From Candidatus Sungiibacteriota bacterium (GTDB lineage Bacteria; Patescibacteriota; Minisyncoccia; Sungbacterales; HO2-52-23): 64,000 bases of DNA. Under the pieces are notes generated by a model. That model did not search any database and was not told the origin of the DNA. It was given only the letters and a program-made list of their open reading frames with translations. Shown here piece after piece: positions 1-35,246 of the stretch (positions are counted from its first letter, which is position 1; the number at the start of each line of letters is the position of its first letter). Location of the stretch: positions 59,660 through 123,659 of the forward strand of contig JACPBG010000004.1 in the NCBI GenBank assembly GCA_016180435.1, read 5' to 3'. The position numbers were made by a program, and so were the translations under genes.

Positions 1-22
1 CGGTTTTTTCAATCCAGACAAG

Positions 23-3000
23 TTGCCTGCGGCCAAAGAACTAAGAACTAAGAACTTAGAACTTAGAAAACCAAAAAGGGAACTAAGTTCTAAATCACTA
101 AGATCTAAGTTCTATGATGCAAAATCATTTTGCATCGTTGTCCCTCCTCCCAACGTTACCGGTTCTCTGCATATGGGACACGCTCTGAATGCCGTTATTC
201 AGGACATCTTGATACGCAAAAAACGAATGGAAGGATTTAGAACTTTATGGCTTCCCGGTACGGATCATGCCGGAATTGCTACGCAAAATGTGGTGGAAAA
301 AGAACTTCGCAAACAAAATATTTCGCGCCACGAATTGGGCAGGGAAAAATTTTTGGCGAGTGTGTGGGAATGGAAAGAAAAATACGGGAATATAATTCTG
401 GACCAATTTAAAAAACTGGGTTCTTCTATGGATTGGTCGCGCGTGCGTTTTACCATGGATGAGGGGTATAAAAAAGCGGTGGAGGAGGCATTTATTCACT
501 ATTATAAAAAAGGATGGATTTACCGCGGAGAGCGCACGGTGAATTGGTGTTCGCGTTGCGCGACTTCCCTTTCGGACCTTGAAATTGAGTATCGGGAAGA
601 GAAAGGCAAATTTTACTATATTAAATACGGCCCCATGGTTTTAGGAACCGCACGGCCGGAAACAAAATTAGGGGATACTGCGCTGGCGGTAAATCCGGTA
701 GACAAACGGTATAAAAAATACATCGGGAAGGAAATTATTATTCGATCGGTGGATTCGTCGGTGGTTCGTGAAGAACAGCCCCGGCTCAAAGATATAAAAA
801 TAAAGGTGGTTGCGGATGAGGCGGCTGATCCGAAATTTGGAACAGGCGTGATTAAAGTAACGCCGGCCCATGATGCGGCTGATTTTGGAATTTATCAGCG
901 GCATCCCGAGATTCTGATTATAAAAGTAATTGGCGAAAACGGACGCATGACTAAAGAGGCGGGTGCGCGTTATGAGGGGCTGAAGGTTTCCGAGGCCCGG
1001 AAACAAATTATTGAAGACCTGGAAAAATTAGGACTCATGGATCATATCGAGGATTACACGCATAACGTCTCGTTATGTTATCGCTGCGGGACAGTGATTG
1101 AGCCGCTTCTTTCCAAACAGTGGTTCTTAAAAATGGATGAATTGGCTAAAATGGCAATTAAAGCCGCCCGCCCCGTTAGAGCCGGCTCTAATGGGGTTAA
1201 ATCCGGAAAAATTAAGTTTCATCCCAAGCGTTGGGAGAAGATTTATTTTGATTGGCTCGGCAATATCAAAGATTGGTGCATATCAAGACAGATTTGGTGG
1301 GGACACCGTCTGCCTGTCTGGTATTGTATGGGCTCGCATATCCAAACCGAAAAAAAAATGGGATTTGCCGGAGATATTGTCCCACAGGTTTTTATCAACA
1401 AAACACGGACTTACCGGTTACGCGATCACGGATTTAAAATTGGTGACCGTGTTGCATTTGAAAACAGCGCTACCGGAGAGATCTTTGGATACGCCGTAAT
1501 TACTGAAATTAAAAAAACAACCGCGGGTGAAATCGATTTAAAAGACCCGAAACATTACAAAATATATAACACCTGCGAGGAACTTATTACAGCATTCAAG
1601 CACCATCCGCAAAAAATAAATAAAGGAACAATCAGTGAAAATACTCTCGTGTGGATTTATACATATCGGTTTGAACCGGCTGATAAATCTGGATCATGCA
1701 TTCGGTTAAATCCCGTTGTAAAGGGCAACTGGTTTTTTGTGAGGCATGGAGAAACGGATTTTAATAAAGAACGTCGTATTCAGGGACAAACCGCTGGAGG
1801 CCCTCTTAATGAATTAGGAAAAAAACAAGCATATGAAACCGCTCAGCGGTTGAAGCCATATAAAATTGATTTAATTATTAGTTCGGATTTGGCGCGAGCT
1901 AAAGATACCGCCGAAATAATTGCCAAAGAGCTTAACGCCGAGATCATTTTTGATGCGGCATTGCGCGAAAGAAATTATGGCATTGCGGAAGGTACGACCC
2001 CTGAAGAGCGAAAACAGCACTACCCCGAATTAGAAGACCGTCTCAAGGAATATACCTTTGTGCCAGACGGCGGAGAAAATTTACCAACCATGGAGAAACG
2101 GATATACCGGGCGCTGGCGCAGCATAAAAAAAATCACCTCCATAAAAATATAGTCATCATATCACACGGCGCCACACTTAAAGGACTTTTTCGTAAGTTA
2201 AAAAATATACCGTTCAACGAGTTTTCCGAATTTACGATCCATAACGCCGGCGTTATTCATGTCTCCATTTCCGATCCATGTGAGAAATGCGGGAGCGATT
2301 TGGCGGAGCAAGACACTAATGTTCTGGATACATGGTTTTCATCCGCGCTTTGGCCTCTGGCAACACTTGGTTGGCCGGATAAAACGGGAGATCTTAAAAA
2401 TTTCTATCCCACCTCGGTATTATCCACGGCGCGTGATATAATCAATTTATGGGTGGCGCGCATGGTATTTTCCGGGCTGGAATTTATGGGAAAGCCGCCG
2501 TTTAAGGATATAATCATCCACGCCACCATTCTCACTAAAGATGGCAAACGGATGTCAAAATCCCTCGGAACCGGCATTGACCCCATGATTTTGATTGAAA
2601 AATACGGGGCAGATGCCGCGCGTTTCGGACTTATTTGGCAGGCCATGGGCAATCAGGATATACACTGGTCGGAGGAGCATGTGGTGGCCGGAAAAAAGTT
2701 TGCCAATAAGATTTGGAACGCCAGCAGATTCGTCCTGCTCCAAATTCCAAATTCTAAATTCCAAACTCCAAACAAATCACAAATTCCAAATTCTAAATTC
2801 CAAACATCGGCGGATAAAAAGATACTGAAACAACTGGAAAAAACAAAAAAAGATGTTTCCAAAAGCATTGATAAATATGAATTTGGACAAGCGCTACATG
2901 CGCTTTACGAATTTTATTGGCACGAGTTTTGCGATGTCTACATAGAAACAGCTAAATCACAAATCACAAATCACAAATCACAAGCAGCAACAGAAAATAT

Positions 3001-3130
3001 TTTACTTTATGTTCTCATTGAATCATTGAAACTCCTACATCCTTTTATGCCTTTTGTTACCGAAGAAATATGGAGCCATCTGCCGCTGAAAGACAAGAAG
3101 CTGTTACTCGTTGAAAACTGGCCCACATAA
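23..3130 (+). CDS. valS: valyl-tRNA synthetase carrying a ~330-aa internal insertion (ASCH/PUA-like + histidine-phosphatase domains); 5' end possibly truncated by window edge (TTG start at 23, frame open to position 2)
   Basis: PPPNVTGSLHMGHA (HIGH), KMSKSLGTGIDP, editing-domain motifs TARPETKLGDTALAVNP and GTGVIKVTPAHD, DWCISRQIWWGHRLP, DTWFSSALWPLATLGWP. Confidence 0.9.
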   Translation: MPAAKELRTKNLELRKPKRELSSKSLRSKFYDAKSFCIVVPPPNVTGSLHMGHALNAVIQDILIRKKRMEGFRTLWLPGTDHAGIATQNVVEKELRKQNISRHELGREKFLASVWEWKEKYGNIILDQFKKLGSSMDWSRVRFTMDEGYKKAVEEAFIHYYKKGWIYRGERTVNWCSRCATSLSDLEIEYREEKGKFYYIKYGPMVLGTARPETKLGDTALAVNPVDKRYKKYIGKEIIIRSVDSSVVREEQPRLKDIKIKVVADEAADPKFGTGVIKVTPAHDAADFGIYQRHPEILIIKVIGENGRMTKEAGARYEGLKVSEARKQIIEDLEKLGLMDHIEDYTHNVSLCYRCGTVIEPLLSKQWFLKMDELAKMAIKAARPVRAGSNGVKSGKIKFHPKRWEKIYFDWLGNIKDWCISRQIWWGHRLPVWYCMGSHIQTEKKMGFAGDIVPQVFINKTRTYRLRDHGFKIGDRVAFENSATGEIFGYAVITEIKKTTAGEIDLKDPKHYKIYNTCEELITAFKHHPQKINKGTISENTLVWIYTYRFEPADKSGSCIRLNPVVKGNWFFVRHGETDFNKERRIQGQTAGGPLNELGKKQAYETAQRLKPYKIDLIISSDLARAKDTAEIIAKELNAEIIFDAALRERNYGIAEGTTPEERKQHYPELEDRLKEYTFVPDGGENLPTMEKRIYRALAQHKKNHLHKNIVIISHGATLKGLFRKLKNIPFNEFSEFTIHNAGVIHVSISDPCEKCGSDLAEQDTNVLDTWFSSALWPLATLGWPDKTGDLKNFYPTSVLSTARDIINLWVARMVFSGLEFMGKPPFKDIIIHATILTKDGKRMSKSLGTGIDPMILIEKYGADAARFGLIWQAMGNQDIHWSEEHVVAGKKFANKIWNASRFVLLQIPNSKFQTPNKSQIPNSKFQTSADKKILKQLEKTKKDVSKSIDKYEFGQALHALYEFYWHEFCDVYIETAKSQITNHKSQAATENILLYVLIESLKLLHPFMPFVTEEIWSHLPLKDKKLLLVENWPT

Positions 3131-3134
3131 AAGC

Positions 3135-3166
<32 letters not shown>

Positions 3167-3257
3167 AGACATGAATGCTAAGATCTAAGTTCTTGAATGC
3201 TAAGTTCTACGTTGCATAGCAACGCTGGCCGCAGTCATAGGAATAAATATCGGATAT

Positions 3258-3989
3258 GTGCTTTTAACCTTCGTGCCTCCGGTGCTCTGGCTTCTTTTTT
3301 ATTTGCGCGAAGATCGGCATCCCGAGCCCAAAACCCTGCTTCTTCTGACATTTATCGGAGGTATGGCATCGGCTCTCCTGGCCATGTTCGCCGAGATAGT
3401 GGCGCTGGGCGGTCCGGAAATGGCGTTTTCGGATTCGTCGTTTCTGCGGCAAAATATATTTATCTTTTTTTTGGTCATAGGACTTATTGAAGAATATGCT
3501 AAGTATCTTCCGGTGAAATTCTTGGTTCTGTCGCGCTGCCGCGACCATCAAAAATGCGATTTTGACGAGCCGATCGACGCCATGATTTATATGATAACCG
3601 CGGCCCTGGGTTTTGCCGCGCTTGAAAACACCCTGTTTTTGTTCCCGTTTTTTAAGGAAAACATCTATTTGGGACTTGAGGTTGCCGCCAACCGCTTTTT
3701 GGGAGCAAATCTTCTGCACGCTTTATCCTCCGGCATCGTGGGTTACTTTCTGGCACGCGCGTTTTTCTCGCCCTACAGGCATCATTTTGTGGCGCTGGGC
3801 ATAATTACCGCCGCCTTGTTGCACACTATTTTCAATTATCTTATACTGGTAAGAGAGGTACTGCCGCAAGGAACGTTTTATATAATCTTTCTTTTATCCA
3901 CTATGGCGGTTATGGTATTCGTGGATTTTGAACGACTCAAAAAGGCGCGAATAATAGACGAATCGCCCAAAACGAATATTAGCGAATAA
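3258..3989 (+). CDS. PrsW-family intramembrane protease-like membrane protein
   Basis: multi-TM; conserved-looking motifs LIEEYAKY (EExxK), GFAALENTLF (FxxxE), LLHTIFNYL (HxxxN). Confidence 0.6.
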   Translation: MLLTFVPPVLWLLFYLREDRHPEPKTLLLLTFIGGMASALLAMFAEIVALGGPEMAFSDSSFLRQNIFIFFLVIGLIEEYAKYLPVKFLVLSRCRDHQKCDFDEPIDAMIYMITAALGFAALENTLFLFPFFKENIYLGLEVAANRFLGANLLHALSSGIVGYFLARAFFSPYRHHFVALGIITAALLHTIFNYLILVREVLPQGTFYIIFLLSTMAVMVFVDFERLKKARIIDESPKTNISE

Positions 3990-4205: not shown

Positions 4206-4787
4206 ATGAATACTTTTTTCGAAAAACTTACCAATTCCAAGCCGCAACCCGTTGCGGCCGATATTGGCGCGGAAGAACGCGATGATGAGGCCGCGGTTGT
4301 TGAAAAAGAAGTTACGCCTTCGCAGCCGTCTCCCAAACGCGCGCCCATGCGTAAAATCGCAGCCCCGGTCCAGCTAAAACCCAAACCAACTCAATTAAAA
4401 GTAGAAAGCGAGGAAGCGGAATCAACGGCAGGGGAGAAAGAAAAAGAACTTGAAGAAGAAGGAGAGTTGACTGTAGATATATATGACAATGGTAATGCTA
4501 TTGTAATTCAATCAACCGTAGCCGGAGTAAAGCCGGAGAATTTGGATGTTTCCATAACAACAGATACCGTGACTATTCGCGGGCGAAGGGAAAAATCCGA
4601 AGAGATTAAAGAAGAACATTATTACTACAAGGAACTTTTTTGGGGTTCTTTTTCCCGCTCGGTCATTTTGCCCGAAGAAATTGATGATACTGCCGCAGAG
4701 GCCGCTTTGAAACACGGCCTTCTCACTATCACGCTTCCGAAGAAAAGAAAAGGAGTGGCGCAGAAACTTAAGGTAAAGGTAACCTAA
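4206..4787 (+). CDS. Hsp20/alpha-crystallin family small heat-shock protein with low-complexity N-terminal extension
   Basis: C-terminal alpha-crystallin-like domain LTVDIYDNGNAIVIQSTVAGVKPENLDVSI...GLLTITLPKK. Confidence 0.8.
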   Translation: MNTFFEKLTNSKPQPVAADIGAEERDDEAAVVEKEVTPSQPSPKRAPMRKIAAPVQLKPKPTQLKVESEEAESTAGEKEKELEEEGELTVDIYDNGNAIVIQSTVAGVKPENLDVSITTDTVTIRGRREKSEEIKEEHYYYKELFWGSFSRSVILPEEIDDTAAEAALKHGLLTITLPKKRKGVAQKLKVKVT

Positions 4788-4962: not shown

Positions 4963-5166
4963 TCACGATTTCAATAAACTAGCTCCAAACTCTGAATGAC
5001 ATTTTACACAAAAACCCTTTAGCGTCATTCCAATTGTGTTAATCTTACCGACACTTTCTTTGTAATAGGTGGTACCCCTTACAATATCGCCACTACATCT
5101 ATCGCAACGTCGAGAAACCCGTGCTTTTGTTTCTTTAAGAAACTTAATGCTATCGTATTTACTCAT
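4963..5166 (-). CDS. small zinc-ribbon protein (CxxC...CxxC), last gene of cassette operon; 4-nt overlap with upstream MTase gene
   Basis: RRCDRCSGD ... CVKCHSEFG cysteine pairs; ATGA overlap at 5163-5166. Confidence 0.45.
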   Translation of the reverse strand: MSKYDSIKFLKETKARVSRRCDRCSGDIVRGTTYYKESVGKINTIGMTLKGFCVKCHSEFGASLLKS

Positions 5167-6014
5167 ACGGATTCAGCAAAAGCGTCCGATAGAATCATTA
5201 CCTCTCTGCCTTTGCGCGATTCATAAGCATTATAGTTGAGAGAAAAACTAACGATTTTTCTTTTTGGATATAATGACCTTATTTCTTTCTTGTTATCGTA
5301 AGTAAGTAACCAGAAAGCATCTCGATTCTCATTAAGTTTTTTTGCAAGTGCTTCGTGATTTTCTTTTTGATAGTGGTTGAGGTAAAGTGTTGCCCCCTTT
5401 TCAAAATAAGGGGGGTCGAGATATATGAAAGAGTTTTTCTTGTCTAAATATTCTTCAATCAATTCAAGGCCATCTTTGTTATATACCGAGATTTTGTCCT
5501 TATATCGGCCAAGTTGTTGGATTTTTTTCACCAAACTTTTCTTATTAAATCTTGCATCAATTTTCCATTTCCCTTTTTGGTTTAATCCACCAATAGGTCC
5601 TCCATCTAAAATCCCGGAAATATTAGTTCTATTTAGAAAAAAGGTTGCAAACCCCAGCTTAAAAAGCCATGATTTTGGATTTTCATAAATTGCCTTTTGT
5701 TTTTTCCATTCGTCAATAGTAATTGGGGTTCTGTAAATCTTCCCTACAAACTTTTCTGAATCAAAAATCGCTGACTGCCAAAACGAGTAAATCGCCCTAT
5801 CAAGATCATTAATCACAATTTTTTTGACCCTGCCAGAAAATAAGAGCGCAAGCGCTGCTCCCGCTCCGCCAGCAAACGGTTCAACGTAAGTGAGATTTTT
5901 CAGACCTTGCTCTTTAATAACTTTTTCAAAAAAGGGCACAAGAGAAGTCTTACCTCCAGGATATCGAAGGGGGCTGTGGTAATTTTTCTGATTTTTGTTC
6001 GTTAGTATTTTCAT
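5163..6014 (-). CDS. Dam-family (D12 class) N6-adenine DNA methyltransferase
   Basis: YPGGK near N-terminus, EPFAGGAG (SAM-binding motif I), IYLDPPYFEKG (DPPY motif IV). Confidence 0.85.
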   Translation of the reverse strand: MKILTNKNQKNYHSPLRYPGGKTSLVPFFEKVIKEQGLKNLTYVEPFAGGAGAALALLFSGRVKKIVINDLDRAIYSFWQSAIFDSEKFVGKIYRTPITIDEWKKQKAIYENPKSWLFKLGFATFFLNRTNISGILDGGPIGGLNQKGKWKIDARFNKKSLVKKIQQLGRYKDKISVYNKDGLELIEEYLDKKNSFIYLDPPYFEKGATLYLNHYQKENHEALAKKLNENRDAFWLLTYDNKKEIRSLYPKRKIVSFSLNYNAYESRKGREVMILSDAFAESV

Positions 6015-34994: not shown

Positions 34995-35092
34995 TTGTCG
35001 ATTTTTCCTGGAAAAGTTCTACTTTATTCTTATCATCCCGCGTCAAATAGCGCAAATTAAAAATCGGCCCGGCGGGGTCTTAGTTTTTGAAA

Positions 35093-35164
35093 TGGGGATG
35101 GCAGGGATCGAACCTGCGACGGCCGTCTTATAAGGGCGGTGCTCTACCACTGAGCTACATCCCC
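35093..35164 (-). tRNA. tRNA with anticodon TAT (UAU; Ile-type), acceptor GGGGATG/CATCCCC
   Basis: anticodon loop CTTATAA read by hand from cloverleaf; one C:A mismatch in anticodon stem. Confidence 0.6.
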
Positions 35165-35246
35165 ACAAAAAAGCTTGCCCTCCTAAATTTTGCAATACAA
35201 AATTTTGGAGGGTGAAGAAGGACAAGCCAAGCCACATGCTCATAAA

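Follow-up and report, generated by a model that had tools for sequence, protein, structure and literature searches.

A valyl-tRNA synthetase of a Candidate Phyla Radiation bacterium with an ASCH module and a histidine phosphatase predicted to nest in one zinc knuckle

The subject of this analysis is the valyl-tRNA synthetase (ValRS) gene valS at the left edge of a 64,000-nucleotide stretch of contig JACPBG010000004.1 (positions 59,660 to 123,659 of the forward strand, Candidatus Sungiibacteriota bacterium), referred to below as the window. Two further modules, a YqfB-like ASCH module and a branch-1 histidine phosphatase, are encoded inside the catalytic domain of this synthetase, and each is predicted to occupy one of two successive loops between the ligands of a single zinc knuckle. 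The joint explanation that fits the data best, to which we give about an even chance, is that the open reading frame (ORF) is a genuine, working valS of a Parcubacteria-like bacterium of the Candidate Phyla Radiation (CPR), and that its knuckle hosts two nested enzyme modules, each folding autonomously. Positions are those of the window, and residues are numbered from the TTG at 23 (the listed ORF start), the true N-terminus lying to the left of the window. The coordinates of the features are collected in Table 1.

The original prediction, made from the sequence alone, had named the host as ValRS, and both NCBIfam valS equivalogs scored above their cutoffs (NF004349, 914.5 bits against 704; TIGR00422, 856.7 bits against 612.1). 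Pfam matches to tRNA-synt_1 and Anticodon_1 (the latter with E 2.4e-30) were observed on the ORF, and the ValRS of Thermus thermophilus (1GAX) was aligned with an E value of 2.8e-187 as two separate blocks (35-436 of the window ValRS to 35-418, and 752-1034 to 437-706). The frame, open from base 2, is unbroken to the stop codon (1035 codons from the TTG at 23), the HIGH signature is present as HMGH and the KMSKS signature as RMSKS (residues 843-847, nt 2549-2563). The CP1 editing domain is also present, residues 196-346 aligning to the T. thermophilus ValRS editing structures 1WKA/1WK9, together with the zinc site of the CP1 hinge (C176, C179, C352, and C355). Unlike T. thermophilus ValRS, the window ValRS has no C-terminal coiled-coil arm: no Pfam match to Val_tRNA-synt_C (PF10458) was found in the ORF, and the 1GAX alignment stops at 706 of 862. 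The same short, armless form was observed in L003, L006, L013, P0001, and P0105-P0109. Judged from these sequences, the missing arm is a native trait of the subfamily and not an argument against ValRS identity. The claim that both ValRS halves are intact therefore stands for the catalytic core, the CP1 editing domain, and the anticodon-binding domain; it does not extend to the arm, which is natively absent, or to the first ~20 residues, which fall beyond the window edge. Within the 64-kb window, no second copy of an ASCH, phosphatase, or class Ia synthetase gene was found.

All the peptides quoted in the original prediction were found in the translation, WWGHRLPVWYC ending at C435 and DTNVLDTWFSS beginning at residue 764. 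The insert placed between them at 1328-2320 (residues 436-766) was recovered in the 1GAX alignment; what had been taken for an ordinary linker, however, is the four-Cys zinc knuckle of connective peptide 3 (CP3), with one module in each successive inter-ligand loop. T. thermophilus ValRS belongs to the same family and has the same four-Cys knuckle between its WxGxxIPxWYC strand and its DTWFSS helix, but its knuckle loop between C417-x2-C420 and C438-x2-C441 is ~18 residues long, whereas ~315-320 residues with two enzyme domains stand there in the window ValRS. Five Cys occur in residues 420-775 (435, 518, 559, 753, and 756), and C518 is non-conserved and lies within the ASCH module. The loop from ligand 1 to ligand 2 accommodates the ASCH module and that from ligand 2 to ligand 3 the phosphatase, and a single four-Cys zinc site (C435, C559, C753, and C756) appears, from the alignments, to clasp the ends of both inserts. 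ValRS relatives with the phosphatase only follow the pattern WYC-x-GCG-x3-I-x-P-x2-KGNWFFVRHGETD ... C-x-KCG-x-D and those with ASCH only the pattern WYC-[ASCH]-GCG-x2-IV-x6-8-CP-x-C; at the level of these patterns, the window ValRS is a combination of the two. The knuckle corresponds to the CP3 subdomain of the isoleucyl-tRNA synthetase (IleRS) literature, where CP3 leads from CP2 into the second Rossmann half, differs in topology among species, and contains a zinc motif in the T. thermophilus enzyme; in class Ia synthetases, CP3 is known as a site of variable insertions (PMC7191050).

Table 1. Features of valS and of the two inserted modules in the window (residues numbered from the TTG at 23).
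Feature	Position (nt)	Strand	Residues and remarks
valS CDS	2..3130	+	class Ia valyl-tRNA synthetase; stop TAA 3128-3130; 5' end beyond window edge
HIGH signature (HMGH)	170..181	+	residues 50-53
Cys435 (WYC), predicted zinc ligand 1	1325..1327	+	aligns to T. thermophilus ValRS Cys417
ASCH module, YqfB-like	1328..1696	+	residues 436-558; K460, T463, R465 at nt 1400-1417
'Knuckle + phosphatase' cassette, approximate extent	1679..2302	+	from DNA alignment of the window with L005
Cys559, predicted zinc ligand 2	1697..1699	+	matches second Cys of C-x-G-C-G in phosphatase-only ValRS; from alignments
Branch-1 histidine phosphatase module	1700..2278	+	residues 560-752; R574, H575, N581, R625, E649, H715
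Cys753-Glu-Lys-Cys756 (CEKC), predicted zinc ligands 3 and 4	2279..2290	+	aligns to T. thermophilus C438-x2-C441; invariant in alignment A5
Second half of ValRS Rossmann fold and anticodon-binding domain	2291..3127	+	DTWFSS at residue 768; no coiled-coil arm

For the first insert, a PUA/ASCH-like barrel had been proposed, and the fold assignment is clear at the level of the structural model. An exhaustive homolog search recovered a well-defined family for the module, and AlphaFold2 with an alignment of 60 homologs gave a model with a predicted local distance difference test (pLDDT) score of 88.5 and a predicted template modelling (pTM) score of 0.80, whereas prediction of residues 425-774 from the single sequence was uninformative (pLDDT 44.6). 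In the structure comparison of this model, YqfB was the best match and every other top match was an ASCH protein. The window copy itself scored just below the Pfam ASCH (PF04266) threshold (20.1-20.3 bits against 21.2), and 8 of the 18 family members were matched, with a best E value of 1.4e-7 (26.7 bits for P0100, 22.6 bits for L039). Matches to End_beta_barrel (phage endosialidase) in Pfam and the PDB covered a local similarity of ~40 residues far under the cutoff and were set aside in favour of the full-length ASCH fold; repeat proteins returned by the exhaustive search (P0123, P0124, and P0126) were discarded as spurious low-complexity matches.

The nearest characterised relative, Escherichia coli YqfB (N4-acetylcytidine (ac4C) amidohydrolase; PDB 9KYF/9KYH/1TE7), shares 17-18% identity with the module, and the profile-to-sequence match is non-significant, with a probability of 1% by hhalign of the family profile against the lone YqfB sequence and an E value of 0.12 for YqfB in an hmmsearch of profile A2 against the PDB. 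K460, T463, and R465 align to K21, T24, and R26 of YqfB in the octapeptide G-K-x-x-T-x-R, and this Lys, Thr, and Arg are invariant both in the 18 family members and in the 60 homologs; the leading Gly of the octapeptide is retained in most relatives and replaced by Asn in the window copy. Further conserved residues of the module are H511, Y515, and Y546/Y548; the corresponding half of YqfB has His70 and Tyr89 in addition to its catalytic acid, Glu74. In YqfB, K21, T24, and R26 are each essential for catalysis, and the enzyme hydrolyses free ac4C and other N4-acyl cytidines (PMC6972931). According to a 2026 preprint, all 19 diverse ASCH proteins assayed strip ac4C from tRNA (10.64898/2026.02.27.708502). 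YqfB is a free-standing protein, whereas the module of the window sits inside ValRS between two zinc ligands, and its amidohydrolase activity is a prediction. The ratio of nonsynonymous to synonymous substitution rates (dN/dS) was 0.10 for the ASCH module and 0.05-0.09 for the host, with dS near saturation, and the module is under purifying selection comparable to that of the host.

The second insert was confirmed as a full histidine phosphatase domain. Pfam His_Phos_1 matched residues 571-751 with an E value of 5.5e-47 (160.4 bits against a cutoff of 21.7), and the catalytic Arg/His/Arg/Glu/His set is present. All the catalytic residues given in Table 1 line up residue by residue with those of PspA (4IJ5) and of PhoE from Geobacillus stearothermophilus (1H2E/1EBB), and they are invariant in nine homologs (alignment A5); loss of the catalytic His or Arg had been named beforehand as an observation that would speak against a phosphatase, and both are kept. 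The window module, PhoE, PspA, and CobC share the full-length His_Phos_1 domain with its RHG His, its pair of Arg, the Glu, and a second His. The difference from these proteins lies in the setting, since the window phosphatase is inserted in ValRS and its termini are clasped by the two halves of a CxxC...CxxC zinc knuckle. By their NCBIfam names, two other families likewise have an enzyme domain fused to a class Ia synthetase or an RNA-acting enzyme, namely IleRS with an N-acetyltransferase domain (NF040702) and bifunctional RNase H/acid phosphatase of the Rv2228c type (NF005567). The window phosphatase scores 99-102 bits against the phosphatase half of NF005567, and the window protein is far under the cutoffs of both families and is a member of neither.

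The architecture had been called very unusual, with a survey of ValRS orthologs suggested as a check. Such a survey was made by a scan of one genome per GTDB species with a single peptide pattern built from seven sequences, so that the 35 loci recovered are a lower bound. Thirty of these lie inside ValRS, and the other five are archaeal eL32-ASCH fusions. The ValRS loci come from many CPR phyla, namely Parcubacteria, Liptonbacteria, Gribaldobacteria, Doudnabacteria, Berkelbacteria, Saccharibacteria, Nomurabacteria, Roizmanbacteria, Curtissbacteria, Levybacteria, Colwellbacteria, and Moranbacteria, and all 10 of the long ASCH hosts checked were valS equivalogs. About three quarters of the insertions are in the knuckle (site 1) and the remainder in the loop following the DTWFSS helix (site 2; ATL-[ASCH]-FYPT), and ASCH without the phosphatase was observed in ValRS of at least 25 CPR species at these two sites. 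ASCH in ValRS is thus widespread in CPR, and it is the tandem combination of ASCH and phosphatase that is rare: it was also found in an independent 1035-aa ValRS of a Liptonbacteria genome (L006), and with another histidine-phosphatase subtype in L019/P0115. In the ValRS L013, the knuckle is occupied by the phosphatase, whereas ASCH is inserted at site 2. Sequence databases already hold proteins of this kind, filed under generic names, e.g. 'class I tRNA ligase family protein'.

Outside ValRS, the ASCH module was observed fused to uL23 (P0100), uS4 (P0112), FtsY (P0103), and a second histidine-phosphatase type, and to the C-terminus of eL32 in DPANN archaea (L018, L022, L025, L031, and L036; Aenigmatarchaeota, archaeon GW2011_AR5). 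Among the fusions are a free-standing phosphatase-ASCH protein (P0104) and a Nudix-ASCH protein (P0101), and many CPR genomes encode the module by itself, ~105-120 residues long. In at least 13 other ValRS (P0001, P0002, P0004, P0006, and L044-L052), the knuckle hosts just the phosphatase with its knuckle halves, and two IleRS (L053, 1516-4974; L054, 101-3679), whose ileS equivalog scores are 870 and 855 bits against a cutoff of 621, carry a histidine phosphatase at their homologous CP3 knuckle (CxxC...CxxC). Free-standing phosphatases of ~210 residues, forming ~25 clusters, keep both knuckle halves (MPNYFCMxCG ... CxxCGGDLYE). In the viral contigs searched, neither module was found.

Of two free-standing ASCH genes, one (L040, 5001-5342) lies between grpE and dnaK in one CPR lineage and the other (L042, 5001-5324), in another lineage, in an island with a second ASCH/DUF3850 gene and genes for UDG, GNAT, NYN, and Nudix proteins; both neighbourhoods are functionally uninformative. 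In another ValRS (P0114, 1062 aa), a second, different ASCH-like segment was noted by eye at residues ~455-565 ('...NGSKTVELRAGRE...'), just upstream of the module, which would make two tandem barrels in CP3; the sole Pfam ASCH match in this protein, at 576-663, is the module itself.

A recent exchange in the window lineage can be read from the closest genome match, Parcubacteria group bacterium GW2011_GWA2_45_30 (L005), in which the N-terminal half of ValRS is 89% and the ASCH module 82% identical to the window. In the DNA alignment, the two sides match at 79% and 78% identity, and between ~1678 and ~2303 no homology remains; there, ~624 nt in the window stand against ~80 nt in L005 that encode a short Cys-rich knuckle. 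Because the L005 ValRS has ASCH only, the phosphatase with its own knuckle halves looks, from this alignment, to have been exchanged knuckle-for-knuckle as a cassette, which is supported by the conservation of the knuckle flanks in the free-standing phosphatase clusters described above. By parsimony the event would be a gain in the window lineage, the alternative being a loss in the nearest relatives. For the ASCH module, mean identity was 51% between archaeal and CPR copies and 53% among CPR copies, and this near-equality suggests lateral spread together with strong constraint. In another close relative (L003; 3.5x coverage), which is syntenic with the window (ValRS-PrsW-HSP20), an in-frame TAA was observed at 1613-1615 inside ASCH, where the window encodes Glu, and the gene is called as two ORFs; this stop is either a sequencing error or a recent pseudogenisation.

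For the function of the two modules, a tRNA-end or nucleotide-processing activity had been suggested at the outset; it is a reasonable inference from the sequences, and it is strengthened by the recurrent, independent fusions. In the model considered here, ValRS would go on aminoacylating tRNA-Val, the zinc site would keep the two ends of each insert close to one another, and the modules would be displayed on the CP3 surface in the second Rossmann half. Both modules would be catalytically active, the ASCH module as an N4-acyl-cytidine (ac4C-type) amidohydrolase or binder and the phosphatase as a phosphomonoesterase, and the two may act on a common cytidine-derived nucleotide or RNA substrate. 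Such cooperation is suggested by the joining of ASCH to phosphohydrolases (two unrelated histidine-phosphatase subtypes and Nudix) independently in at least four topologies. In one version of the model, modified nucleotides from RNA turnover would be dephosphorylated and then deacylated for salvage, which would suit CPR organisms as scavengers of nucleotides. In the other, tRNA or rRNA would be processed at the translation machinery, a version favoured by the bias of the fusion partners towards ValRS, ribosomal proteins, and FtsY. Taken at the level of sequence comparison, the function is probably a cytidine-modification or nucleotide processing tethered to translation.

Several observations weigh against this picture of two active, cooperating enzymes in a working synthetase. 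In the ASCH family, an invariant Tyr (Y515), four residues after the His H511, falls by eye at the position of the catalytic acid Glu74 of YqfB, in a C-terminal half where the sequence alignment to YqfB is ambiguous, so the chemistry or substrate of the module may differ from that of YqfB, or the domain may only bind. The phosphatase is under all the specific NCBIfam equivalog cutoffs (CobC, the best, 112-115 bits against 162.9; GpmB, 96-98 against 261; PspA, 88-91 against 350), and no substrate can therefore be assigned to it. It is also absent from the nearest relatives (L005, L003, and L007), indicating that it is dispensable for ValRS function. No ac4C writer was found in the genome, though no search aimed at one was made. 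Finally, over 28 ValRS the similarity of module and host was weakly correlated (Mantel r 0.17, a value reached by 6 of 2000 permutations), a result compatible with lateral spread, and the insertions may have been opportunistic instead of selected for a role tied to ValRS.

An alternative is that both modules are passengers, laterally mobile domains that settled in a surface loop tolerant of insertions, in a gene that is essential and highly expressed. They would function, if they do so at all, independently of ValRS, and the fusion would secure their expression only, with nothing in its mechanism that connects them to tRNA or translation. We regard this as plausible but less likely than the joint explanation above. 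In its favour, both modules also occur as free-standing proteins, the phosphatase looks exchangeable as a cassette and the closest relatives do not have it, congruence between host and module is weak, copies in CPR and archaea are nearly as alike (51%) as those within CPR (53%), and CP3 is structurally hypervariable among IleRSs (PMC7191050). Random landing, however, would not be expected to produce the host specificity observed, in which ASCH entered ValRS at two sites, each long host checked is a ValRS, the other ASCH partners are nearly all translation components (uL23, eL32, uS4, and FtsY), and the phosphatase targets the homologous knuckle in ValRS and IleRS alike; nor were carriers found in the viral contigs searched. 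A non-catalytic role, with the ASCH barrel as an extra tRNA-binding surface that makes up for the absent coiled-coil arm and a phosphatase that has no part in this, is considered improbable. The window ValRS does lack Val_tRNA-synt_C, and the fusion partners of ASCH are RNA-binding proteins, but many ASCH-bearing ValRS retain the arm (PF10458 is present in L039, and P0110, L011, L021, and L034 are full length) and short ValRS with the phosphatase only have neither arm nor ASCH, which weakens the compensation argument. The catalytic-type Lys, Thr, and Arg are moreover strictly invariant in all contexts, free-standing proteins included, a pattern more suggestive of a conserved pocket than of an unspecific RNA-binding surface.

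That the finding is an artefact, be it an assembly chimera, a pseudogenised valS, or a selfish element of the intein type within it, is scarcely credible. In favour of an artefact, no second assembly of the exact sequence was found in a search for near-identical metagenome contigs, and the syntenic relative L003 carries the in-frame stop inside ASCH noted above. Against this, the 1035-codon frame is unbroken with matching knuckle halves on either side, exactly four Cys are kept at the ligand positions, the ASCH module is under purifying selection, and the GC content is unremarkable. An intein or selfish element was rejected, in agreement with the original prediction of an in-frame insert free of intein signatures, since there is no Hint/intein Pfam match, no HN+Cys/Ser/Thr junction (HN[CST] occurs nowhere in the protein), and no homing endonuclease. 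The same architecture was observed in independent assemblies of different phyla (L006 at 1035 aa, L019), and this, together with the continuous knuckle, makes it very probable on sequence grounds that the insertion is not a chimera.

A more specific proposal is that ASCH would read or erase N4-acylated cytidine in RNA while tethered to translation, having been wired repeatedly by CPR and DPANN into ValRS (at two sites), ribosomal proteins, and FtsY, and that together with the phosphatase it would form a station on the synthetase where tRNA is repaired or proofread in cis. We hold this as speculative, with a small chance of being correct. Such a station might remove ac4C, aberrant N4-acyl or aminoacyl adducts, and terminal phosphates from tRNA before charging and, if the proposal is true, would be a new kind of quality control built into an aminoacyl-tRNA synthetase.

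Other features of the window were also recorded. All the period-7 tandem repeats of the 64 kb fall inside or just after valS, with arrays near the 5' end of the gene (36-68 and 83-114; AAGAACT x4.7 and CTAAGTT x4.4), in its C-terminal part (2739-2806 and 2954-2983; TCCAAAT x9.9 and AAATCAC x4.3), and straight after the stop codon (3135-3169; ACTTAGA x5), followed by a further stretch at 3172-3213. The arrays within the gene encode low-complexity loops (KELRTKNLELRK..., LQIPNSKFQTPNKSQIPNSKFQT, and KSQITNHKSQ). The motif ACTTAGAACTTAGA had 7 matches against 0.02 expected, and the same heptamer family flanks valS on both sides. Downstream of valS, on the minus strand, lie genes for a PrsW-family intramembrane protease (3258-3989), Hsp20 (4206-4787), and a D12-class N6-adenine DNA methyltransferase (5163-6014), the first two of which are syntenic with L003. 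A tRNA-Ile gene with the anticodon TAT (35092-35165, minus strand) was called by ARAGORN and confirmed as a tRNA by Rfam; this tRNA is an uncommon bacterial way of reading AUA.

The components of the protein are known, namely ValRS, the ASCH superfamily with a YqfB-type motif, and branch-1 histidine phosphatases, and synthetases with appended domains are well known. Three aspects appear to be undescribed: the nesting of whole enzymes within a single zinc knuckle of a class Ia catalytic domain, each in one of two consecutive loops between ligands, the recruitment of an ASCH module to translation components across CPR and DPANN, and a knuckle-clasped phosphatase cassette common to ValRS, IleRS, and free-standing proteins. 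In a full-text literature search of incomplete coverage, no report of these was found.

The window ValRS is a clean natural example of domain insertion via zinc-knuckle exchange and provides a testable system. The wider pattern is the more valuable result, in which a highly conserved YqfB-like ASCH module has been recruited repeatedly to ValRS and ribosome-associated proteins in CPR and DPANN, with recurrent pairing to phosphatases or Nudix. Together with the preprint on ASCH proteins that erase ac4C from tRNA, this recruitment points to an unexplored link of cytidine acylation or nucleotide salvage with translation in ultra-small, host-dependent microbes.

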